Source of the DNA: Patescibacteria group bacterium | GTDB lineage: Bacteria; Patescibacteriota; Minisyncoccia; 2-02-FULL-40-12; IGHO2-01-FULL-4-A | DNA length: 64,000 nt | Reading direction: 5' to 3' | NCBI GenBank assembly: GCA_038064915.1 | Contig: JBBTSB010000005.1 | Location: 10,615 to 74,614, forward strand | Shown here: positions 2,502 to 42,506 of the stretch, piece after piece | How positions within the stretch are numbered: the stretch's first letter is position 1 | Layout of the letters: every line of letters begins with the position of its first letter | Notes under the pieces: model-generated | The model's database searches: none | The model's input: the letters and a program-made list of their open reading frames with translations, nothing else | What the model was told of the DNA's origin: nothing | Position numbers and translations under genes: made by a program

Positions 2502-2523
2502 GGTAAAGGGAGGTTGGGAGGGT
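2489..2523 (+). repeat. Direct repeat copy 1: hairpin CCTCCCTTTA-AGG-TAAAGGGAGG plus GGGAGGG SD
   Basis: About 35-40 bp nearly identical to 2896-2937; it overlaps the stop of the upstream gene and provides the SD for the DUF559 gene. Confidence 0.7.
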
Positions 2524-2529
2524 ATATTT

Positions 2530-2913
2530 ATGACAAAGATTCTCTACAATCATCCCAACTATCTAGAGCGCCGTCGAAATTTACGAAAAGATCAAACACC
2601 TGAAGAGAAAATTATTTGGGAGCACTTGCGCAAGAAAAAGCTTGGATATCTTTTTTGGCGGCAATACAGCGCAGGACTATATGTCCTCGATTTCTATTGT
2701 CCCAAGCTTCGGTTAGCTATTGAAATCGACGGCTTGCAGCATGCAACGCGGGATGGAAAAGAGTATGATGAAGAGCGAGAACAGTATCTTCTCGGACTTG
2801 ATATCAAGATGTTGCGTTTCTGGAATTCCGAAGTTCGTGCTAATCTTGAAACGGTTTTAGAAAAGATTAAGCGCGAAATAGCAAAATCCTCTGAACTCCT
2901 CCCTTTAAGGTAA
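2530..2913 (+). CDS. DUF559 endonuclease-domain protein (Vsr-like fold family)
   Basis: LYVLDFYCPKLRLAIEIDGLQH....D..R...L...G...LRFWNSEV is the typical DUF559 signature; real start ATG 2530 (MTKILYNHP). Confidence 0.8.
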   Translation: MTKILYNHPNYLERRRNLRKDQTPEEKIIWEHLRKKKLGYLFWRQYSAGLYVLDFYCPKLRLAIEIDGLQHATRDGKEYDEEREQYLLGLDIKMLRFWNSEVRANLETVLEKIKREIAKSSELLPLR

Positions 2914-2937
2914 AGGGAGGCCGGGAGGGTATAATAT
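2896..2937 (+). repeat. Direct repeat copy 2 (hairpin plus GGGAGGG SD) upstream of topA
   Basis: CCTCCCTTTAAGGTAAAGGGAGGccGGGAGGGTATAATATT matches 2489-2523 at 36 of 38 bp. Confidence 0.7.
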
Positions 2938-2938
2938 T

Positions 2939-5062
2939 ATGCCGTCGTTAGTAATCGTCGAATCTCCAACGAAAGCCAAAACGATTTCCAAATTTCTTGG
3001 CAGCGATTATGTTGTGCGTTCAAGCTTTGGGCATGTGCGGGATTTGCCCAAAAGCAAAATGGGCGTGGATACGGAACACGGCTTTACGCCCAAGTATGTC
3101 ATCCCCATCAAGGCGAAGGAAATCATTGCTGAACTGAAGAATTTGGAAAAGAAAACTGATGAAGTGATCCTCGCTTCCGATGAAGACCGCGAAGGAGAAG
3201 CGATTTCTTGGCATTTAATGCAAGCATTGGAACTCAAGAAACCGAAGCGTATCGTTTTTCATGAGATTACCAAATCATCCATCCTCGAAGCGCTGAAACA
3301 TCCTCGGGAAATAGACATGAAGCTCGTAGACGCGCAACAAGCGCGTCGTATCTTGGATCGTCTTGTTGGCTATGAGCTGTCGCCATTTCTGTGGCGCAAA
3401 ATTCGCTTTGGGCTTTCCGCCGGGCGCGTACAATCTGTTGCCGTGCGCCTAGTAGTGGAACGCGAGCGCGAGATCCAGGCTTTTAAAAAAGACGAATACT
3501 GGACGATTGATGCGATTTTTGATCGCTTCAAAGCGCGCTTAGTCCAAATCGGAGGTAAGAAACTTGATAAGCTTGCAATTCAGAATGAAATTGAAGCAAA
3601 AAAAATAATAGAAGATCTAGAAGGGAAAAAATACGAAGTAAAGGAAATAACAAAGAAAGAGGTTCAGCGCCATCCAGCAGCGCCGTTTACCACATCCACA
3701 CTTCAGCAAGAAGCAAGTCGCAAACTGGGGCTTTCCGCAAAGCAGACTATGATGCTTGCGCAAAAACTCTATGAGACAGGGCAAATCACGTACATGCGTA
3801 CCGATAGTGTAAATCTCGCAGAATCTGCAATTGCGCAGGCACAAGATGTGATCTCGAAGCAATTTGGCAAAGAATACTCCGAACCTCGTCGCTACTCCAC
3901 CAAATCCAAAGGCGCCCAGGAAGCACATGAAGCAATTCGTCCTACGGACTTTTCCCACCAATCAAAAGACAAGCTCTATGATTTGATTTGGAAGCGCGCT
4001 ATTGCTTCACAGATGGCAAGTGCAAAGCTTGATCAAACGAGCGTAGACATAGAGGCAGGAAATCATTTGTTTCGAGCAACCGGTAGCGTCATAAAATTTG
4101 ACGGTTTTATTCGTGCGTATACCGAAGGAAAAGATGAAGAGGAGGAAGTGGAGGGACAACTCCCTGAACTAGAAAAAGGCGAAGCACTCGATCTCAAAAA
4201 ACTTGAGCCCTTACAACACTTCACCGAGCCCCCTCCCCGCTATACAGATGCCACACTTGTCAAAGCCCTTGAAGGTTATGGCATAGGACGACCATCTACA
4301 TACGCGCCAACGCTAGCCACCATTCAAGAAAGGGGTTACGTAGAGAGAATAGACAAAAAATATCAGCCCACGGAGATTGGATTTCTCGTGAACGACATGC
4401 TTGTCGAGAATTTTCCAGAAATCGTCGATATCAACTTTACATCGCTCATCGAAAAGTCTTTTGATGAAATTGCTGAAGGCACAAAGAAGTGGGTACCAGT
4501 GATTTCTGATTTCTATAAGCCCTTTCACGCGCACTTAATAGCAAAAGAGGACGAAGTGAATAAACTGGTTGTTGAGTCCGATGTTGCGTGTGTTCACTGC
4601 GGCAAAAGAATGCTGATCAAGTTTGGCCGCAATGGCAAGTTCCTCGCCTGTCCCGATCCGGAGAGCAAAATCACTCAGCCCATGCCCGAAGAAGCCGCGC
4701 AGATCAAAGCTCTGCAAGAAAAAACCCAAGGCGAGAAATGTCCCATCTGCAGCAAAAATATGGAAATCAAGCGAGGGCGGTTTGGATTTTTCCTTGGATG
4801 TGTGGATTACCCCAAGTGCAAAGGCATCACGAAGATTTTAAACAAGACCGGATTCAAATGTCCGAACTGTTCCGTGGGTGATATCGTCGAGCGCAAATCC
4901 CGCGGACGTGGAAAAGTGTTTTATGCGTGCAGCAGATTTCCCGATTGTACCTTCCTCATGAGCAAGAAACCCGAATCCGAAGCCGATCTCGCTCCAGCTC
5001 TCCAACACTGGAAGGACAATCCACCGAAAGAGAAGAAAGAAAAACCTTGGCAGAAAAAATAA
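2939..5062 (+). CDS. topA: DNA topoisomerase I with C-terminal zinc-ribbon repeats
   Basis: MPSLVIVESPTKAKTISKFLG TOPRIM N-terminus, an active-site Tyr region, and C-terminal C4 zinc ribbons (CVHCGKRM, CPICSKNM, CPNCSVGD). Confidence 0.92.
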   Translation: MPSLVIVESPTKAKTISKFLGSDYVVRSSFGHVRDLPKSKMGVDTEHGFTPKYVIPIKAKEIIAELKNLEKKTDEVILASDEDREGEAISWHLMQALELKKPKRIVFHEITKSSILEALKHPREIDMKLVDAQQARRILDRLVGYELSPFLWRKIRFGLSAGRVQSVAVRLVVEREREIQAFKKDEYWTIDAIFDRFKARLVQIGGKKLDKLAIQNEIEAKKIIEDLEGKKYEVKEITKKEVQRHPAAPFTTSTLQQEASRKLGLSAKQTMMLAQKLYETGQITYMRTDSVNLAESAIAQAQDVISKQFGKEYSEPRRYSTKSKGAQEAHEAIRPTDFSHQSKDKLYDLIWKRAIASQMASAKLDQTSVDIEAGNHLFRATGSVIKFDGFIRAYTEGKDEEEEVEGQLPELEKGEALDLKKLEPLQHFTEPPPRYTDATLVKALEGYGIGRPSTYAPTLATIQERGYVERIDKKYQPTEIGFLVNDMLVENFPEIVDINFTSLIEKSFDEIAEGTKKWVPVISDFYKPFHAHLIAKEDEVNKLVVESDVACVHCGKRMLIKFGRNGKFLACPDPESKITQPMPEEAAQIKALQEKTQGEKCPICSKNMEIKRGRFGFFLGCVDYPKCKGITKILNKTGFKCPNCSVGDIVERKSRGRGKVFYACSRFPDCTFLMSKKPESEADLAPALQHWKDNPPKEKKEKPWQKK

Positions 5063-5186: not shown

Positions 5187-5440
5187 GCCCTTTTTCAAAA
5201 ACCGGTGATTTTTCTGATGTAAAAGTTCTTTCACCTTTTGGAGAAATACCGTGGAATGAGCTTTCTCGATTCAGCGATACAGAAATGAAAAAATTGATGA
5301 TTAATGTCGTAAATCATTGCTATAATTTTCTTTATCTTTTGTATGGTGGCGCCAAAGGCGATGAGATCATTGAACTTTTAAAAGACACAGATCCCATGCC
5401 TCATTGGAACGACCCAACAGGAGAGCTGTACTGAATACGG

Positions 5441-5528
5441 CGGATAGGGTGGGATTCGAACCCACGGTCCGCCTAGGGCGGACGGCGGTTTAGTAAACCG
5501 CTGGTATAAACCACTAACCGACCTATCC
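5441..5528 (-). tRNA. Class II (long variable arm) Ser-like tRNA, apparent anticodon ACU
   Basis: Reverse complement folds as GGATAGG acceptor, T-loop GTGGG-TTCGAAT-CCCAC, variable hairpin GTCCGCC-CTAG-GGCGGAC and G73. The anticodon arm GCGGT-TTACTAA-ACCGC gives an unusual 5'-ACU-3'. No encoded CCA. Confidence 0.6.
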
Positions 5529-5542
5529 AAATTTTGACTTTG

Positions 5543-5630
5543 CGGAGGAGGTGGGACTCGAACCCACGAGCCAGTTTTACCCGGCAACCTCTTTAGCAAA
5601 GAGGCGGAATAGCCGCTATCCGACTCCTCC
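5543..5630 (-). tRNA. tRNA-Ser(GCU)
   Basis: GGAGGAG acceptor, anticodon arm CCTCT-TTGCTAA-AGAGG, long variable arm, T-loop TTCGAGT, G73; 88 nt. Confidence 0.8.
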
Positions 5631-5681
5631 AAATGCTTTTTATGTATACCATTTATTACACTTTTGCGCTATAGTTTCTCT

Positions 5682-6317
5682 ATGTCCAAAAAAGTCTATC
5701 TTGTCCGTCATGGGGAGACGGAAGATCTTGCAAAGAAGTTGCATCAGCAGAATGATTCTGTTCTTTCGGAGCGAGGAAATCAACAGGCGCAAGATGTTGC
5801 GGGGCGTTTTTCCAAAATACGCGCAGATATAGTTTATTCGAGTCCATTTCTCAGAACTCTTCAGACAGCGAAGCACATCGGTACCATAGCAGGTGCACCG
5901 GTTGAAACAAAAGAGCTTCTTCGTGAACGGAAACAACCAAAAGAGATTATGGGAAAACCGCGGGATGATGCGGAAGTGATGCGCATCAAAAACACTATCA
6001 ACGAACACAGACATGATCCCTCGTGGCATTATTCCGACGAAGAAAACTTTTTTGACCTTCGCGGTCGAGTGAAAGAATTTCAGAAATTTGTAGAAAACGA
6101 TACCCAAGAGAACGTGGTGTTAGTATCTCACGCGGTATTCATTAAAATGTTTACGCTGGTGAGTGTTTTTGGAGATTTACTCACACCGGATATGTTTTCA
6201 TCGTATTATCAACATGTGCGAACAAGCCAAACTGGTATTACTATGCTTGAGTTCACTGATAATGAATGGAAGCTTCTTACCTGGAATGATTATGCGCATT
6301 TAGGAGAAAATACATGA
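5682..6317 (+). CDS. Histidine phosphatase family protein (phosphoglycerate-mutase-like)
   Basis: VYLVRHGET catalytic RHG motif plus IVYSSPFLRTLQTA; start ATG 5682. Confidence 0.8.
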   Translation: MSKKVYLVRHGETEDLAKKLHQQNDSVLSERGNQQAQDVAGRFSKIRADIVYSSPFLRTLQTAKHIGTIAGAPVETKELLRERKQPKEIMGKPRDDAEVMRIKNTINEHRHDPSWHYSDEENFFDLRGRVKEFQKFVENDTQENVVLVSHAVFIKMFTLVSVFGDLLTPDMFSSYYQHVRTSQTGITMLEFTDNEWKLLTWNDYAHLGENT

Positions 6318-6795: not shown

Positions 6796-6867
6796 GCACC
6801 CGTCGTTCAACGGATAGGACGCAGGATTGCGGATCCTGCAATAGAGGTTCGATTCCTCTCGGGTGCA
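6796..6867 (+). tRNA. tRNA-Arg, apparent anticodon GCG
   Basis: GCACCCG/CGGGTGC acceptor, D-arm GTTC-AACGGATA-GGAC, anticodon arm CAGGA-TTGCGGA-TCCTG, T-arm AGAGG-TTCGATT-CCTCT, A73. Confidence 0.75.
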
Positions 6868-6892
6868 CACTTTCTTCGCTAAAGCTACGAAG

Positions 6893-36965: not shown

Positions 36966-38462
36966 ATGATCAAGGAGAAGCTCCAACAACTTACTGGCGC
37001 TGAAGTCACCAAACCAAAACCTGAATTTGGGGATTATGCTGTGTTTGTTGGGAAGGAGGCTCAAGCGCTAAGCGAAAAGCTAAAAGCGCAAAGTATTCCA
37101 GAAATCGAAAAAATCGAAGTCAAAGGCCAGTATATTAATTTCTTTTTGAGTTCTGCATACGTTCAGCAACAGCTTTATTCTGATTTTGCTTTTGATCCGT
37201 ATCTGAAAGACAAGACAATCATAGTCGAGTACACGGACCCTAATCCCTTTAAGTTGTTTCACATTGGACATCTCATGAGCAACGCAATAGGCGAGTCAAT
37301 CGCGCGACTCTACGAAGCAAGTGGAGCGAAGGTGATACGGGTAACTTGGCAAGGAGACGTGGGCATGCATATCGCAAAAGCGGTGTGGGCTGATGGTGAC
37401 TATGCTGCAGGCGCAAAGGCGTTTGATGAAGATCCCAAAGCAAAGCAAGAAATCGAAGCAATCAACAAAAAAATCTATGATCGCAGCGATTTGGAGATCA
37501 ATAAGCGCTATGATGAGGGGCGCAAAGCGAGTCTAGAGTATTTTGAAAAGGAGTACGAGCGCCTGGGATCAAAGTTTGATCGGTATTTCTTTGAGAGCGA
37601 GGAGGGACCGAAAGGCCTAGCGTTGGTGAAGGCTCATCCGGAGGTTTTCGTGCCAAGCGAGGGCGCAATTGTCTTTCATGGAGAGCACACGAGAGTATTT
37701 GTGAATTCACAAGGCCTGCCGACGTATGAAGCCAAAGAGCTGGGTTTAAATCAGGAAAAGTTCAAGCTTTATCATCCCGACCTCTCTGTCATCGTCACGG
37801 GTAATGAGATCAAGGAGTATTTTCATGTGCTCATGGAGGCCATGAAACTTGTCATGCCTGACGTTGCGGAAAAAACTCGCCATGTTCCGCATGGCATGCT
37901 GCGTCTTCCGACCGGTAAGATGTCATCGCGCACGGGCGATGTGATCACCGCCGATGAACTCATTGAAGAAGTAAGGGAAAAAACAAAATCAGAAGAAGTA
38001 GCTACTGGCGCGATCAAGTACGCCATTCTCAAGCAGGGGATAGGTAATGATATTATCTTTGATCGGGAAAAATCCATAGCCGTGCACGGTGATACAGGCG
38101 TGTATTTGCAGTATACGTATGCCCGATTGATCAGTATACTGACCAAATCGGGAATTTCCAATTTCCAATTTCCAATTTCCAATGAATTTCTCAATGAAAA
38201 AAATGAACTAAACATCATTAAACATTTGATAGAGTTTCCTGATGCCGTCCGTGAAGCCACGGAGCGCATTGCACCCAATATCATGGCGCTCTACTGCTAC
38301 GAGCTGGCCAATCTCGCAAATCGATACTACGAAGAAGTGAGGATTCTTGATGATATCAATGAAGATAGAAAACAGGCACGGTTAGTGCTGGTAAGAACAG
38401 TTGCTGATATCTTAAAGCGAGGTCTAGGACTTTTAGGAATTGCGGCTCCGGAACGAATATAG
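36966..38462 (+). CDS. argS: Arginine--tRNA ligase (short form)
   Basis: Class I HIGH (NPFKLFHIGHLMSNAIGESIARL), MSSR in place of KMSKS, C-terminal DALR-type anticodon-binding helix bundle. Confidence 0.7.
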   Translation: MIKEKLQQLTGAEVTKPKPEFGDYAVFVGKEAQALSEKLKAQSIPEIEKIEVKGQYINFFLSSAYVQQQLYSDFAFDPYLKDKTIIVEYTDPNPFKLFHIGHLMSNAIGESIARLYEASGAKVIRVTWQGDVGMHIAKAVWADGDYAAGAKAFDEDPKAKQEIEAINKKIYDRSDLEINKRYDEGRKASLEYFEKEYERLGSKFDRYFFESEEGPKGLALVKAHPEVFVPSEGAIVFHGEHTRVFVNSQGLPTYEAKELGLNQEKFKLYHPDLSVIVTGNEIKEYFHVLMEAMKLVMPDVAEKTRHVPHGMLRLPTGKMSSRTGDVITADELIEEVREKTKSEEVATGAIKYAILKQGIGNDIIFDREKSIAVHGDTGVYLQYTYARLISILTKSGISNFQFPISNEFLNEKNELNIIKHLIEFPDAVREATERIAPNIMALYCYELANLANRYYEEVRILDDINEDRKQARLVLVRTVADILKRGLGLLGIAAPERI

Positions 38463-38813
38463 TGCTCCCACCACTCCTCCCAGCGTGTCCATGAGTAGGT
38501 CTTTCATGGTGTCGTCAAGATCGCCCTGGAGAGACACGGGGAGAATTTGGCCCAGTACGTACTCATGAAATTCCCACAATACGCCAACTCCTATCGTCAT
38601 CCCGAGAACACAAAAGAAACGGAGCAGTTGTGAAAGTTTGCCAAATTGGGTAGCATAATAGGATGCCACAAGGAGAGCTATACCCAGGCCCCCGATAAAG
38701 TGGAAATACGTATTGCCAATTTCGATATACCATGTTCCGCCCCACCAACCTCCGGTATAGCCGAGCAAAAAGAGAACAACAAGACCAAAAAAAATAACGC
38801 GTGTTTGTCGCAT
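38433..38813 (-). CDS. Hypothetical small membrane protein
   Basis: Three or four TM helices; start at MRQTRVIFF. Confidence 0.45.
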   Translation of the reverse strand: MRQTRVIFFGLVVLFLLGYTGGWWGGTWYIEIGNTYFHFIGGLGIALLVASYYATQFGKLSQLLRFFCVLGMTIGVGVLWEFHEYVLGQILPVSLQGDLDDTMKDLLMDTLGGVVGALYSFRSRNS

Positions 38814-41800
38814 GGATATCAGTATAACAAAAATAGAAGAAAAAATCCTCAAATTCTGGAATGACCGGGAGATTTTCAGGCGCTCACTGGAGGCGCGTCT
38901 GGGCAAAAAGCGTTTTGTCTTTTTTGAAGGACCTCCCACCGCCAATGGACGGCCCGGGATACATCACGTTATGGGGCGTGCATTCAAGGATCTCTGGCCT
39001 AGATACAAGACCATGCGTGGATACTACGTAGAGCGCAAGGCAGGCTGGGATACGCATGGCTTGCCGGTGGAAATCGAAGTGGAAAAGGAGCTGAGCTTTA
39101 CCAATAAAAAAGAAATTGAAAAATACGGCATTGCAAAATTTAATGCCAAAGCCAAAAAAAGTGTTTGGAAGTACAAAGACGAGTGGCAAAAGCTCACGCA
39201 TCGGGTTGGATTTTGGTTGGACCTTGAGCACCCCTACATCACGTACGAACCGCAGTATATAGAGAGCCTATGGTGGGTGATAGCCCAGATCGACAAGAAA
39301 AAACTTCTCTATGAAGGTCACAAAGTTTTGCCCTGGTGTCCGCGATGCGGAACGGCGCTTTCAAGTCATGAGGTAGCGCAAGGATACAAGGACGTGACCG
39401 AAGATTCTGTTTACGTAAAGCTCAAAACCAGCAAGGGTGAGCTACTTGCCTGGACCACGACCCCCTGGACGTTGCCAGGCAACGTGGCATTGGCAGTTGG
39501 GGAGGATATTGACTACGTAAAAACAAAAGAAGGATACATTTTGGCAAAATCTCTCGTCGAAGCGGTATTGGGCAAAGCAGATATTGTAGAGGAGTTCAAA
39601 GGGAGTGAACTTGTCGGGCTCAAGTATCAGCCTTTGTTTGAGGTAAAAGCATTGCAAAATAAAAAATCGCATACGGTCTATGGGGCAGACTTTGTGACGA
39701 CCACCGACGGTACTGGCATCGTGCATACGGCAGTCATGTATGGTGAAGATGACTACGAACTGGGGAAAAAACTGGGTTTGCCCATGCACCACACGGTGGC
39801 TCCTGATGGGACGTTTACGAAGGATGTTAAAGAATTTGCGGGACGCAATGTCAAAGAAGCCGAACCAGATATTTTGAAGTATCTGGAAGCTAAAAGCTAT
39901 AAGCTAAAAGCTATAAGCTATGCCCATAGCTATCCACATTGTTGGCGGTGCAAGACTCCACTCATCTACTATGCCAAAGATTCCTGGTTTGTGGGAATGT
40001 CCAAGCTCCGCAAACAGCTTTTAAAAAATAACTCCAAAGTAAACTGGTATCCCGAGCACCTCAAAGAGGGGAGATTTGGGGAATTCCTCAAAGAGGTCAA
40101 AGACTGGGCGTTTTCTCGTGAGCGCTACTGGGGCACACCGCTTCCCATATGGAAATGTAAAGAGGGCCATCAGCGCGTGGTTGGATCATTTGCAGAACTC
40201 GAAGCGTTTCGATACGCGCCACCAACAACATTTCTGTTGGTGCGTCATGGAGAAAGTACAAGAAATGTTCCTGGCGGAGAGACACTCATTGCGTACAAAT
40301 TGGAAAGCGATACTGTTCCACTGACTGAAACGGGAAAGCAACAAATGGAAACTCTTGCGCAGAAGCTGTCGGAGAGCAAAGAAGTGGATTTGATCTACTC
40401 TTCACCATTCCAGCGGACAAAGCAATCGGCCGACATTATTGCAAAAAAACTCGGGAAAAAAGTTTTCGTTGATGAAGGCTTGAAAGAGTATGATCATGAG
40501 CATGAGGATTATGCAACACTCCGGGCGCGGATGATCGTTTGTCTGCGGAACCTTGAACGTGAATATCCCGGCAAAAAAATTCTTGTGATGAGTCATGCTG
40601 ATCCCATCATGGTGTTAAATGATTGGACATTGCCGGAGGTCGGGGAAATGCGTGAGTTTACGCTTAATAACTATCCCTATAACAAATCCGGTGAGCTTGA
40701 TCCGCACAGGCCATATATCGACGAGATTGCACTTAAATGCGATCAATGTGGGAATAAAATGCACCGCGTCAAAGAAGTCGTCGATGTATGGTTTGATTCG
40801 GGTGCGATGCCATACGCGCAGTATCACTATCCGTTCGAGAACCAAGATCAGTTTGATGCGCAGTTTCCCGCTGACTTTATTTCCGAGGCCATTGATCAAA
40901 CCCGCGGGTGGTTTTATACACTACTTGCCGTCAGCACACTCTTGGGCAAAAAGGCTCCGTACAAAAACGTCGTCTGCTACAGCCATGTTCTTGATGAGAA
41001 GGGTAAGAAAATGTCCAAAAGCATCGGCAATGTGGTCAATCCCTGGGATGTCATTGAGAAACATGGCGTAGATGCGACGCGCTGGTATTTTTATAGTGTG
41101 AACAATCCCGGCGATCCAAAGCTCTTTGCCCTTGAAGATGTAGGCAAGGTTCAGCGGGGGTTTATCACAACGCTCATGAACTGCCTTCGCTTTTATGATC
41201 TATATGCACTATCCACTAATCACTCTCCACTGAATCCAAAGCCCACGGAGCCCCTCGATGACTGGATCTTGTCGCGTCTGCATCGGCTGATTGCATTTGT
41301 AACGGAATCTCTGGACACCCTTGATCCAACTGCCGCATCGCGTGCGATAGAAAATTTCGTTGTCAATGATCTCTCAAATTGGTGGATCAGGAGATCGCGC
41401 GGCAGAGATGATATGGTAGAAATGTTGAGGTATACGCTTACTGAAACAAGCAAGCTCCTCGCACCGTTCATTCCTTTTACTGCAGACCATATCTACAAGC
41501 AGGTGAGCAATCGCAGTGAATCCGTGCATTTGGAGGATTGGCCAAAAGCGAAAAGCAAATACATAAAACCAGAATTAGAGGAAGAGATGAAAAAAGCTAG
41601 AGAAATTGTCGCACTTGGTCTTGCCGAACGAAAAAAAGCCGGAATCAAAGTTCGTCAACCGTTGGCCTCTCTCAATTCACAATGGGCCGTCGGTGTTGTT
41701 ACGCAAAAATATATTTTAGATGAAGTCAACGTAAAACTAGTTCTCTTTGCTCCGAGCCAAGCAGTACCCGTTACTATAGACACCCATATCACCGAAGCGC

Positions 41801-42036
41801 TCAAGATCGAAGGCTACGCGCGCGAAATCTCCCGTGCTATCCAGGATATGCGCAAAGACGCCGGCTACCAGATGGGGGATAAGGTGAGTGTGTTTTGGGA
41901 ATCCTCAAGCCCACAAGCAAAAGAAGCCATAGCGATGGTCAAAGACATAGAGTCCAAGAGCGGCGATACCTTTGATATTTCAAAAGAATTTGAGTTGGGA
42001 CCCAACATAAAAGTATGGCTCGGTATCAAGCGATAG
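38812..42036 (+). CDS. ileS: Isoleucine--tRNA ligase (type 2) with an inserted histidine-phosphatase domain
   Basis: FFEGPPTANGRPGIHHV (type-2 HIGH), CP1 editing region, KMSKSIGN; residues ~465-610 (FLLVRHGES...IYSSPFQRTKQSA...SHADPIMVL) form a PGAM-like HP fold domain. Confidence 0.88.
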   Translation: MDISITKIEEKILKFWNDREIFRRSLEARLGKKRFVFFEGPPTANGRPGIHHVMGRAFKDLWPRYKTMRGYYVERKAGWDTHGLPVEIEVEKELSFTNKKEIEKYGIAKFNAKAKKSVWKYKDEWQKLTHRVGFWLDLEHPYITYEPQYIESLWWVIAQIDKKKLLYEGHKVLPWCPRCGTALSSHEVAQGYKDVTEDSVYVKLKTSKGELLAWTTTPWTLPGNVALAVGEDIDYVKTKEGYILAKSLVEAVLGKADIVEEFKGSELVGLKYQPLFEVKALQNKKSHTVYGADFVTTTDGTGIVHTAVMYGEDDYELGKKLGLPMHHTVAPDGTFTKDVKEFAGRNVKEAEPDILKYLEAKSYKLKAISYAHSYPHCWRCKTPLIYYAKDSWFVGMSKLRKQLLKNNSKVNWYPEHLKEGRFGEFLKEVKDWAFSRERYWGTPLPIWKCKEGHQRVVGSFAELEAFRYAPPTTFLLVRHGESTRNVPGGETLIAYKLESDTVPLTETGKQQMETLAQKLSESKEVDLIYSSPFQRTKQSADIIAKKLGKKVFVDEGLKEYDHEHEDYATLRARMIVCLRNLEREYPGKKILVMSHADPIMVLNDWTLPEVGEMREFTLNNYPYNKSGELDPHRPYIDEIALKCDQCGNKMHRVKEVVDVWFDSGAMPYAQYHYPFENQDQFDAQFPADFISEAIDQTRGWFYTLLAVSTLLGKKAPYKNVVCYSHVLDEKGKKMSKSIGNVVNPWDVIEKHGVDATRWYFYSVNNPGDPKLFALEDVGKVQRGFITTLMNCLRFYDLYALSTNHSPLNPKPTEPLDDWILSRLHRLIAFVTESLDTLDPTAASRAIENFVVNDLSNWWIRRSRGRDDMVEMLRYTLTETSKLLAPFIPFTADHIYKQVSNRSESVHLEDWPKAKSKYIKPELEEEMKKAREIVALGLAERKKAGIKVRQPLASLNSQWAVGVVTQKYILDEVNVKLVLFAPSQAVPVTIDTHITEALKIEGYAREISRAIQDMRKDAGYQMGDKVSVFWESSSPQAKEAIAMVKDIESKSGDTFDISKEFELGPNIKVWLGIKR

Positions 42037-42506
42037 TTCTCAAAAAACAACCCATCCGCGAACATGATGAGCTCATCATGTGCTATACACAGCATGCGGG
42101 GAAGCAGAGGTATGTGGCGAAAAGCTCACAACTGGCAAGCTCCTTACAGGGAAGTCACTTGGATGTGCTCAACCATATCTCGTTTAACCTCGTTGCGGGC
42201 AAGCATTTTGATATTCTCGCAAGCGCGCAGGCGGTGAATACGTTTCCGGAGCTGAAGTCATCGCTTTCGGCACTTGCCAACACTTTTTTTATCTTAGAAT
42301 GCTTTGATAAACTGGTGTATGACAACGAACCCGATGAGAAACTCTGGCAATTTCTCTTGGATCGTCTTGGCGATCCCGTCACCGAGCAGGAAATCATCGC
42401 TATCATGGGTCACCATGCGCCCACTCGCTTTTCTGAACTCACGCGTGCTAGAATAGTTCCATGGATCCCGTTAGAAGTCGCCCCAACGGGTAAATATCCA
42501 CGATGA
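42015..42506 (+). CDS. recO: DNA repair protein RecO (short form)
   Basis: N-terminal OB-fold pattern A.VL...P..E.D.I...T...G....AKS......L.G.L resembles RecO; 163 aa. Confidence 0.55.
   Translation: MARYQAIVLKKQPIREHDELIMCYTQHAGKQRYVAKSSQLASSLQGSHLDVLNHISFNLVAGKHFDILASAQAVNTFPELKSSLSALANTFFILECFDKLVYDNEPDEKLWQFLLDRLGDPVTEQEIIAIMGHHAPTRFSELTRARIVPWIPLEVAPTGKYPR

Follow-up and report, generated by a model that had tools for sequence, protein, structure and literature searches.

A histidine-phosphatase domain nested in the CP3 subdomain of a CPR isoleucyl-tRNA synthetase

The ileS gene of a Patescibacteria group bacterium encodes an isoleucyl-tRNA synthetase (IleRS) with a histidine-phosphatase domain nested in its catalytic half. 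The identity, fold, and boundaries of this domain are established. The insert is a complete branch-1 PGAM-like catalytic domain lodged within the zinc-ribbon subdomain CP3. In our assessment, it is probably the fused form of a phosphatase that works with IleRS and that remains physically linked to ileS in CPR bacteria. Few known enzymes are as conserved as aminoacyl-tRNA synthetases; newly acquired catalytic domains in them are rare in bacteria and have usually indicated new functions, for example in editing, resistance, or signaling. The CPR is a large, mostly uncultured part of bacterial diversity. Over whole CPR classes, the phosphatase is tied to IleRS and comes in three formats: a free gene upstream of ileS in some lineages, a domain nested in IleRS in many, and, occasionally, a C-terminal domain of the neighboring ArgRS.

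The analyzed stretch (hereafter, the window) comprises 64,000 nucleotides of contig JBBTSB010000005.1. The synthetase and the landmarks that define the position of the nested domain are as follows:

38812..42036, + strand: ileS, type-2 isoleucyl-tRNA synthetase of 1074 amino acids, host of the nested domain (TIGR00392, Pfam, AlphaFold)
40099..40134, + strand: CP2-3 linker KDWAFSRERYWG, amino acids 430-441 (read from the sequence)
40132..40782, + strand: CP3 subdomain of IleRS, amino acids ~441-657, enlarged by the nested phosphatase (literature definition)
40153..40170, + strand: first CP3 zinc knuckle, degenerate, with KCKEGH in place of C..C and the second Cys lost (alignments A1 and A3)
40204..40692, + strand: nested His_Phos_1 domain, cap-less "mini" form, amino acids 465-627 (PF00300, 8c8w alignment, structure model)
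40666..40683, + strand: NNYPYN linker leading from the phosphatase back into CP3 (alignments)
40738..40749, + strand: second CP3 zinc knuckle CDQC, C643 and C646 (both Cys invariant)
40783..40803, + strand: DVWFDSG strand, at which the Rossmann fold continues with its second half (invariant motif; the 8c8w alignment restarts just upstream)
41008..41022, + strand: KMSKS signature of the synthetase (read from the sequence; K733, K736, and S737 invariant)

The ileS open reading frame scored 874.8 bits against TIGR00392 (cutoff 621.4), the match being split by the insert. Pfam models tRNA-synt_1 (in two pieces), Anticodon_1 (PF08264, anticodon-binding; E = 8e-30), and DUF5915 (PF19302, the IleRS2-type C-terminal domain; E = 3e-14) were also matched. 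Both class I signatures could be read, GIHH at amino acids 49-52 and KMSKS at 733-737; G/AXHH is a functional IleRS2 variant of HXGH (PMC10485003). Catalytic-core residues of the synthetase were invariant across 60 homologues (alignment A3), and the AlphaFold model of the full-length product had a pLDDT of 87.8 and a pTM of 0.77. The product is a type-2 IleRS and, as judged from its sequence, probably a working one, with isoleucylation and Val editing as its predicted activities.

The first-pass annotation had placed a PGAM-like domain with an intact RHG motif between the WGTPLPIW and DVWFDSG motifs of this protein. The coordinates (40207-40700) and motifs (LLVRHGESTRN and IYSSPFQRTKQSA) that it gave were correct, and the domain was borne out by Pfam, alignment, residue conservation, structure prediction, and a survey of homologues. 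The PF00300 (His_Phos_1) model matched inside the open reading frame with E = 2e-23 and 83.5 bits, compared to a gathering score of 21.7. When the protein was aligned with the canonical type-2 IleRS 8c8w (E = 1e-244), residues 8-464 corresponded to chain residues 13-475 and residues 628-976 to chain residues 485-846. The insert thus spans 163 residues (amino acids 465-627), compared to ~9 in 8c8w; an extra segment is indeed present, and the earlier figure of ~145 residues was slightly too low. The junctions read ELEAFRYAPP... on one side and ...NKSGELDPHRPY on the other. The domain was modeled by AlphaFold with a pLDDT of 87.4 and a pTM of 0.83, and the best 50 Foldseek matches listed in the PDB were all histidine phosphatases (probability of 1.0), in agreement with the expected alpha/beta fold.

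CP3 is the segment from the CP2-3 linker [DW.(I/V)SR.RYWG] to the DVWFDSG strand; it is zinc-bearing in Thermus thermophilus IleRS, and its topology differs among IleRSs (PMC7955072, PMC7191050). The nested domain lies between the two CP3 zinc knuckles. In the first of these, C449 is invariant, and C452, which at least 90% of homologues possess, is missing from the window IleRS and from homologue P0003 (A1 and A3). The NNYPYN linker is kept in insert-bearing IleRSs and missing from insert-free ones.

The window IleRS is identical to an NCBI protein from a metagenome-assembled genome (P0001) that is present on three contigs, and more than 180 IleRS homologues share the same in-frame insert architecture. 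The insert is therefore neither an assembly artefact (a chimera or a frameshift) nor a chance motif match; the latter is also ruled out by the Pfam E value and the confidently predicted fold. An intein or mobile insertion was ruled out as well, since no Hint/intein Pfam match, splice-junction residues, flanking repeat, or shift in GC content or composition was found.

The catalytic motifs of the nested domain are located as follows:

40243..40251, + strand: RHG motif with R478, the nucleophile H479, and G480 (R478 and H479 invariant in 60 homologues)
40399..40416, + strand: SSPFQR motif with phosphate-binding R535 (S531, P532, F533, and R535 invariant in A3)
40477..40491, + strand: GLKEY, with E559 as the presumed acid/base (E559 invariant in A3)
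40588..40605, + strand: MSHADP, with the second catalytic His, H595, and G596 replaced by Ala (H595 invariant)

The PF00300 core residues R478, H479, R535, E559, and H595 are all intact in the window copy and invariant in the 60 homologues of A3. Among 189 embedded copies, the Arg and His of RHG are kept in ~180, the remainder being alignment gaps and one substitution; the equivalent of R535 is found in 187; and a full RHREH or RHRDH set is present in about 176, with only 2 true substitutions. The mean pairwise identity of inserts (0.43) is similar to that of the IleRS C-terminal domain (0.45). According to the alignments, the mini form derives from a full-size (~205-amino acid) ancestor through two deletions, and the 26-amino acid cap segment of relatives is deleted directly after GLKEY in the window copy. 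Of 12 columns invariant in 58 full-size inserts, the window copy retains 11 (P of about 1.6e-3) and the other mini, P0004, all 12. The window mini diverges far faster than its host: its identity is 41 to 48%, compared to 75 to 77% for the host IleRS. Its sequence identifies it as a fast-evolving, cap-less mini with the catalytic core kept, although its fast divergence, together with the loss of the adjacent zinc ligand, could point to relaxed constraint.

These properties bear on the idea that the domain is a non-catalytic module, either a sensor of phosphorylated metabolites or a purely structural element, perhaps decaying in the window lineage. The window copy has lost its cap, the Gly at position 596, and a neighboring zinc ligand, and mini domains outpace their hosts (39 to 48% versus 75 to 83% identity), as would be expected from such a module. 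However, both minis and ~93% of embedded copies have the five catalytic residues, among them the acid/base Glu, for which a domain that only binds its ligand would have no use; Ala recurs at position 596, in 16 of the 189 embedded copies and in 17 free ones; and the fold is predicted at high confidence. We therefore regard a non-catalytic module as highly improbable.

A survey of whether the insertion is lineage-wide, which had been proposed along with the annotation, detected the insert in each of the 120 closest IleRS homologues. In a GTDB scan, it was present in 20 of the 20 CPR genomes found and in none of 60 non-CPR type-2 IleRSs. Some CPR IleRSs contain two to four phosphatase copies at other sites, one of which precedes the anticodon-binding domain and is distant in sequence from the active site; the existence of several insertion sites argues against a strict geometric requirement. 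A recent intragenic duplication as the source of these copies is unsupported, as they show only 36 to 45% identity to any copy. Another CPR IleRS (P0256) combines a phosphatase with a GNAT domain, the latter at the CP3 site that holds the phosphatase in the window. When 1.8 billion proteins were searched, the only fusion partners among the 150 best relatives were encoded by aminoacyl-tRNA synthetase genes. C-terminal fusions to ArgRS were seen in 3 of the 120 nearest ArgRS clusters, a frequency that rules out a general habit of ArgRS fusion.

The genomic surroundings of ileS and a second phosphatase gene of the window are listed below:

36966..38462, + strand: argS, the upstream member of the conserved CPR argS-(phosphatase)-ileS-recO cluster (Pfam Arg_tRNA_synt_N, tRNA-synt_1d, and DALR_1)
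42015..42506, + strand: recO-like gene, the downstream cluster member (Pfam RecO_N, E = 7e-12)
5664..6317, + strand: stand-alone His_Phos_1 gene, a distant paralogue given as 5682-6317 in the first-pass annotation (Pfam, E = 2.9e-34)

Where CPR ileS genes lack the insert, an orthologous free phosphatase gene was found directly upstream in eight of nine sampled loci (L081, L085-L088, L090, L091, and L092), either 1 to 56 nt from ileS or overlapping it, within the same argS-ileS-recO cluster as in the window. Synteny with the window argS was observed at L081, L085-L088, L090, and L092, and the recO-like gene occupies the same position in all related loci. The free ileS-linked phosphatases scored 122 to 184 bits on a hidden Markov model (HMM) of the insert. 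For 20 ileS genes that bear the insert, no free copy was found within 6 kb; at L093, an insert-free ileS had no phosphatase within 5 kb. The free-gene and nested-domain states are thus complementary within one syntenic cluster. The presence of a separate upstream gene in sister lineages points to a working partnership between the phosphatase and IleRS that has not been previously described.

The stand-alone gene of the window had been described as a close parallel of the insert. The resemblance is real at the family level, but the close kinship is not: the two share 40% identity over 86 residues (E = 6e-11), in the N-terminal half only, and the stand-alone gene scored 54.8 bits on the insert HMM. 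In reciprocal searches, the free phosphatase of L085 matched the window ileS open reading frame with E = 1e-19, compared to E = 5e-6 for the stand-alone gene. Derivation of the insert from this distant paralogue is therefore ruled out. By sequence comparison, the true counterpart of the insert is the free phosphatase whose gene immediately precedes ileS in sister CPR lineages.

It is possible, though we consider it unlikely, that the domain is an active phosphatase with an unrelated task (for example, on phosphoserine or sugar phosphates), which became fused merely as a neighbor of ileS in a streamlined genome, with CP3 acting as a tolerant carrier. The domain's closest relatives of known structure act on small molecules (PspA, Entamoeba histolytica PSP, RosC, GpgP, PhoE, and TIGAR), CP3 is structurally variable among IleRSs and hosts a GNAT in others, and insertions occur at multiple unrelated sites and in several copies. 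Gene order in the cluster is also conserved for functionally unrelated genes (recO, an M16 peptidase, and an AI-2E transporter), and at L089, from which ileS is missing, the phosphatase remains fused to ArgRS. On the other hand, fusion has arisen repeatedly and, among the 150 best relatives, with aminoacyl-tRNA synthetases only, and pairing with ileS holds where argS is not adjacent. In addition, nesting near an essential active site would be costly unless tolerated or useful, yet it is kept across whole CPR classes, and a dispensable substrate-selecting cap would be odd for a specific small-molecule phosphatase.

We favor a phosphatase that cooperates with IleRS. Such a domain would be an active phosphomonoesterase in which H479 attacks the phosphate, R478, R535, and H595 hold it, and E559 protonates the leaving group. 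In yeast IleRS, the CP2-3 linker and W529 of the DVWFDSG strand line a pocket in which reveromycin A mimics the tRNA CCA end (PMC7955072). CP3 would thus be rooted on both sides in residues lining the pocket for tRNA A76 and the synthetic site. This placement, together with the loss of the cap without loss of the core, favors a substrate presented by the synthetase itself, which may be a nucleotide ligand or tRNA-Ile with a phosphate on its acceptor end; phosphorylated IleRS seems less likely. The net charge of inserts is near neutral (−7 to +5), so an RNA-binding surface is not evident. The suggested coupling of the domain to aminoacylation gains from the gene context and from the repeated fusion, both of which are consistent with such a link.

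A further alternative is that the phosphatase shields IleRS or tRNA-Ile from toxins that phosphorylate or pyrophosphorylate them, or from phosphate-bearing inhibitors, much as GNATs detoxify aminoacyl-adenylate mimics. HipA-type kinase toxins target synthetases, and toxSAS enzymes pyrophosphorylate tRNA CCA ends. Other CPR IleRSs have a GNAT at the same CP3 site, P0256 combines both domains (NCBIfam NF040702), and GNATs give immunity to synthetase-targeting antibiotics (bioRxiv 10.64898/2025.12.02.691738). Moreover, GXHH, a signature associated with hyper-resistance to mupirocin, is found throughout the clade and suggests that IleRS is under antibiotic pressure. Nevertheless, no toxin, kinase, or antibiotic gene was linked to ileS in any of the locus contexts read, and a constitutive, phylum-wide feature resembles housekeeping more than defense. 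No IleRS inhibitor is known to contain a phosphomonoester. Overall, a protective role appears improbable.

A broader proposal, which we put forward tentatively and consider rather doubtful, is that a large part of the CPR needs a dedicated phosphatase as an IleRS partner, supplied in the form of a free protein with coupled translation or of a CP3-embedded domain. It would provide Ile-tRNA synthesis or its quality control with a second catalytic reaction, such as clearing a 2′- or 3′-phosphate from A76 of tRNA-Ile or dephosphorylating the synthetase or one of its ligands. If so, it would represent a new class of synthetase accessory activity beside editing domains, and with tRNA or the synthetase as the substrate, aminoacylation or its control would gain a novel type of step. 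In a full-text literature search, neither an IleRS-phosphatase fusion nor activity of any branch-1 histidine phosphatase on RNA ends was found to have been described. The three-format pattern offers a concrete, testable hypothesis for a currently unnamed protein family, and it explains why these genes, although essential, receive no more than the label "class I tRNA ligase family protein" from the NCBI pipeline. It also marks out CP3 as a natural permissive site for engineering domain insertions into IleRS.

With canonical IleRS2 enzymes (Priestia megaterium 8c8w and T. thermophilus 1ile), the window protein shares the synthetase body, the CP3 zinc knuckles, DUF5915, and the GXHH/HXGH signature class; it differs in the length of the segment at the insertion site. 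The NF040702 family (ileS_w_GNAT) likewise has a foreign catalytic domain inside the catalytic half of a type-2 IleRS, but the inserted enzyme there is a GNAT and not a histidine phosphatase; the window protein, at 326.7 bits, stayed below the cutoff of 1999 and gave no acetyltransferase Pfam match. Rv2228c-type RNase H/acid phosphatases (NF005567) also fuse a branch-1 histidine phosphatase to a nucleic-acid enzyme, and of the NCBIfam models for phosphatase families, NF005567 gave the insert its highest score (E = 1.7e-18; 67 bits versus a cutoff of 326). In these proteins, however, the fusion is end to end and the partner is RNase H, whereas the window phosphatase is nested.

Minimal phosphatases of the SixA/alr0221 type resemble the window domain in size (~160 amino acids) and in lacking a cap subdomain, and a Foldseek TM-score of 0.61, normalized to target length, was obtained with 3f2i. 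Unlike them, the window mini was reduced from a full-size ancestor, and it scored 29.4 bits on SixA TIGR00249, below the cutoff of 74.5. The closest relatives in sequence and fold (Foldseek E of about 1e-8), with the same catalytic residues, are small-molecule phosphatases of the dPGM-like branch: PspA 4ij5 (phmmer E = 1e-6), E. histolytica PSP 6m1x, PhoE 1h2e, GpgP Rv2419c, and RosC. In contrast to the insert, these are free-standing enzymes with caps that select substrates. The best dPGM model for the insert, NF038349, gave 61.6 bits against a cutoff of 225; of the cap and C-terminal tail with which dPGM holds bisphosphoglycerate, the window copy has the cap segment deleted and the tail missing. 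Membership in the dPGM, CobC, PspA, SixA, and GpmB families is ruled out, as neither nested nor free CPR forms reached the NCBIfam cutoffs. Last, TFIIIC tau55 (2yn0) and its paralogue Huf (2yn2), which are among the best sequence and fold matches, place a histidine-phosphatase domain on tRNA-related machinery too, but tau55 is eukaryotic, belongs to a transcription factor rather than a synthetase, and does not have its phosphatase nested.

The first-pass annotation placed a histidine-phosphatase domain inside the isoleucyl-tRNA synthetase (IleRS) of the window, and both its coordinates and its motifs were borne out by a Pfam search and by alignment with a solved type-2 IleRS (8c8w). The host gene, the nested domain, and a zinc knuckle of CP3, the variable IleRS subdomain that hosts it, are as follows:

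38812-42036, + strand: ileS, type-2 isoleucyl-tRNA synthetase, 1074 aa (TIGR00392, Pfam)
40204-40692, + strand: nested phosphatase, 163 residues, aa 465-627 (alignment to 8c8w)
40153-40170: first CP3 zinc knuckle, KCKE-GHQ (sequence alignment)

The host protein scored 874.8 bits on TIGR00392 (cutoff of 621.4) and contained the Pfam domains tRNA-synt_1, Anticodon_1, and DUF5915; His_Phos_1 (PF00300) was detected within it at E=2e-23 (83.5 bits versus a gathering score of 21.7). Residues 8-464 aligned to positions 13-475 of the 8c8w chain and residues 628-976 to positions 485-846. Because the alignment breaks at aa 464/628, ~9 residues of the canonical enzyme are replaced by 163 in the window IleRS. 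Judged by sequence, the host belongs to IleRS2 and the insert to Pfam His_Phos_1. An identical protein from a "Patescibacteria group bacterium" MAG was found on three contigs; both an assembly error and a chance match are excluded. An intein was rejected since Pfam revealed no intein features; neither a composition shift nor flanking repeats were found at the insert. The class I signature of the host is GIHH rather than HXGH (38956-38967, aa 49-52), and PGIHH is also the consensus in 60 IleRS homologues from the candidate phyla radiation (CPR). The noncanonical G/AXHH signature raises mupirocin resistance of IleRS2 up to 1000-fold (PMC10485003).

CP3 extends from the CP2-3 linker (DW.(I/V)SR.RYWG) to the DVWFDSG strand, bears a zinc motif in the Thermus enzyme, and varies in topology among IleRSs (PMC7191050, PMC7955072). 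The insert is located after its first knuckle, KCKEGH (aa 448-453), and before the second, CDQC (aa 643-646). A one-residue deletion removed the second Cys of the first knuckle in the window IleRS and in P0003, one of its closest homologues, whereas at least 90% of homologues have C..C. For aa 435-670, AlphaFold gave a confident model (pLDDT 87.4, pTM 0.83), as it did for the full-length protein (pLDDT 87.8, pTM 0.77), where confidence holds through the insert. The best Foldseek matches of the shorter model in the PDB were all branch-1 histidine phosphatases with a probability of 1.0, among them the Entamoeba histolytica and Hydrogenobacter phosphoserine phosphatases, Huf/tau55, RosC, TIGAR, GpgP, PhoE, PGAM5, and the SixA-like alr0221. 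The identity, fold, and boundaries of the insert are established.

The active site is intact. The insert holds R478 and H479 (RHG), R535 (SSPFQR), E559 (LKE), and H595 (SHA), and these five catalytic residues do not vary across the alignments of 16 and 60 homologues (53-72% identity). In a census of 189 embedded domains, 172 had the RHREH combination and 4 had RHRDH; the other copies mostly reflect alignment gaps, with true substitutions in only two. Branch-1 enzymes use His to attack a phosphomonoester, Arg and His to bind the phosphate, and Glu as acid/base. By extension from this family mechanism, H479 would attack the phosphomonoester, R478, R535, and H595 would bind the phosphate, and E559 would serve as acid/base. 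Mean pairwise identity was 0.43 for the insert, 0.70 for the Rossmann core, and 0.45 for the IleRS C-terminal domain, a pattern that would be expected of a peripheral domain still under selection.

The window insert is a short form of the domain: its 163 residues compare with ~205 at the same site in relatives (median of 150 proteins). Two stretches are missing, a cap segment of 26 residues that would follow E559 and another 16 residues downstream of the SHG motif, and the boundaries of these deletions are identical in one other IleRS, P0004, and in a free phosphatase, P0122, whose gene is separate from ileS. IleRS bodies of the six closest proteins (P0001-P0006, of which P0001 is identical to the window IleRS) share 73-88% identity (83.5% between P0004 and P0002), while the two short inserts reach only 39-48% identity with those of the others in this group. 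The bodies of the window IleRS and P0004 are not sister sequences. Identical deletion boundaries in nonsister bodies, with far more diverged inserts, point either to cap loss by convergence or to a cassette transferred by recombination. The window copy keeps 11 (P ~1.6e-3) and the P0004 copy all 12 (P ~6e-5) of the 12 columns invariant in 58 full-size inserts. Ala replaces the usual Gly after H595 in the window, as in 16 embedded and 17 free copies. We read the window copy as a remodelled catalytic core that is still selected.

The first-pass annotation had also raised the question of whether the insertion is lineage-wide. PF00300 was present in all 120 nearest IleRS homologues (49-69% identity), which belong to Yanofskybacteria, Paceibacterota, Minisyncoccia, and Parcubacteria. 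A scan of a sample of GTDB species genomes, covering up to 600 matched stretches, revealed, among the matches listed, at least 20 insert-bearing loci, all in CPR MAGs with labels including Saccharibacteria, Peregrinibacteria, and Peribacteria, and none in 60 type-2 IleRSs from other phyla; one MAG is labelled Gammaproteobacteria, probably wrongly. In this sample, the insert is restricted to the CPR. The best matches of the insert alone in an exhaustive HMMER search against 1.8 billion representatives were embedded IleRS copies. In Candidatus Yanofskybacteria RIFOXYD1_FULL_42_10 (L015, 4654-8131), two overlapping ORFs, divided within the phosphatase, make up an insert-bearing ileS, which reflects a frameshift or a sequencing error.

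The phosphatase also occurs in IleRS after HYPFEN (~aa 675-683), before the anticodon-binding domain (~aa 805-812), and at ~aa 400, including tandem double domains and up to four copies in a single protein. Within a set of CPR IleRSs (P0124, P0125, P0127, P0152, P0174, and P0256), some reach 1400-1860 aa, with two to four phosphatase domains at different sites. P0149 and P0174 lack an insert at the site used in the window and have a phosphatase after HYPFEN; P0256 has a GNAT domain at CP3 and a phosphatase downstream. Copies from different sites share no more than 36-45% identity with any other copy, which speaks against recent intragenic duplication as their origin. Three clusters among the 120 nearest ArgRSs (P0181, P0270, and P0271) carry a C-terminal phosphatase.

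The best nonembedded match of the insert is P0122 (156 aa), whose gene lies one nucleotide past the end of argS and three genes ahead of that for a 918-aa IleRS. The CP3 loop of this enzyme is of the canonical short type, and the protein shares 52% identity with the window enzyme. PF00300 was found in none of the 120 nearest relatives of this IleRS (Nealsonbacteria, Pacebacteria, and others), which have 0-40 residues at the insertion site. We inspected the neighborhoods of nine ileS genes without an insert, all relatives of one clade, so that the counts are not phylogenetically independent: eight (L081, L085, L086, L087, L088, L090, L091, and L092) had a free His_Phos_1 gene (156-200 aa) upstream. 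Six of the nine loci were chosen by IleRS similarity, and five of these have the free gene; the other three are biased, since they were chosen via the phosphatase itself. Seven of the eight free genes adjoin ileS with a 1-56 nt gap or an overlap; in L081, two small genes lie between. L091 keeps the pair without argS, and in L093, where leuS is upstream of ileS, there is no phosphatase within 5 kb.

The sister clusters match the window gene for gene (smpB, argS, ileS, recO, a DUF11/CLIPPER surface protein, a class II synthetase, an M16 peptidase, and an AI-2E transporter), and the sole difference is the lack of a free phosphatase between argS and ileS in the window. No free copy was found within 6 kb of ileS in the 20 insert-bearing GTDB loci (argS is upstream in nine). 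In L089 (6001-8070, P0181), an ArgRS-phosphatase fusion is followed directly by recO, and ileS is absent from the locus. Free, nested, and ArgRS-fused states are complementary in one syntenic cluster. On an HMM built from the inserts, five free operon genes (L081 and L085-L088) scored 122-184 bits versus 54.8 bits for the stand-alone window phosphatase (5664-6317), a distant paralogue; with the L085 gene as a query, the window ileS ORF was matched at E=1e-19 and the stand-alone gene at E=5e-6. Neither nested nor free forms reached curated NCBIfam cutoffs (dPGM, CobC, PspA, GpmB, and SixA).

Several neighboring features were recorded. The argS-ileS gap of the window is filled by a 126-aa membrane-protein-like ORF (38433-38813, - strand; DUF2238 match weak and below cutoff), in the very position that the free gene occupies in sister lineages; read at its greatest length (to 38945), it would run into the start of ileS. 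A 163-aa recO-like ORF (42015-42506) overlaps the last 22 nt of ileS and has RecO_N only, while relatives are 238-257 aa with RecO_C. In the L081 genome, which has the free short phosphatase, a nucleotidyltransferase/HepT-like toxin-antitoxin pair (2508-3317) lies just upstream of argS. The stand-alone phosphatase gene sits among tRNA genes (5439-5630 and 6796-6868), with two adjacent tRNA-Ser genes upstream, to which ARAGORN assigns an unusual ACT anticodon (at position 35) in one case and GCT in the other, and tRNA-Arg(GCG) downstream.

The conserved adjacency of the genes, their near-contiguous spacing, and the repeated fusions suggest that the phosphatase works with IleRS. The main rival reading of this arrangement is that an unrelated housekeeping phosphatase hitch-hikes on a permissive loop of a neighboring gene. 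If the two do cooperate, we favor a substrate that the synthetase itself would present, either the phosphorylated acceptor end of tRNA-Ile or a nucleotide ligand, and less likely phospho-IleRS, because the substrate-selecting cap is dispensable and because the CP3 flanks (CP2-3 linker and the DVWFDSG Trp) border the pocket in which reveromycin A acts as a mimic of the tRNA CCA end (PMC7955072). Against a tRNA or nucleotide substrate count the neutral charge of the insert, the distance in sequence of some insertion sites from the active site, and the exceptional contexts of L089 and L093; in addition, we found no report in the literature of a branch-1 histidine phosphatase acting on RNA ends. 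A protection role is possible by analogy with the GNAT insert in IleRS and GNAT immunity to synthetase inhibitors (bioRxiv 10.64898/2025.12.02.691738), but gene context gives it no support.

At NCBI, public insert-bearing proteins go under "class I tRNA ligase family protein" or "hypothetical protein", whereas its pipeline names insert-free CPR orthologues "isoleucine--tRNA ligase"; automatic annotation of an essential gene appears to suffer from the insertion. Full-text searches across some 8 million papers and preprints revealed no description of a phosphatase within, or genetically tied to, IleRS. As an observation, the fusion is well supported; it amounts to a synthetase that carries an accessory domain. 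Among described architectures, the IleRS with a GNAT domain (NF040702) comes nearest, and among fusions of this phosphatase family to nucleic-acid enzymes, the mycobacterial RNase H/acid phosphatase does.
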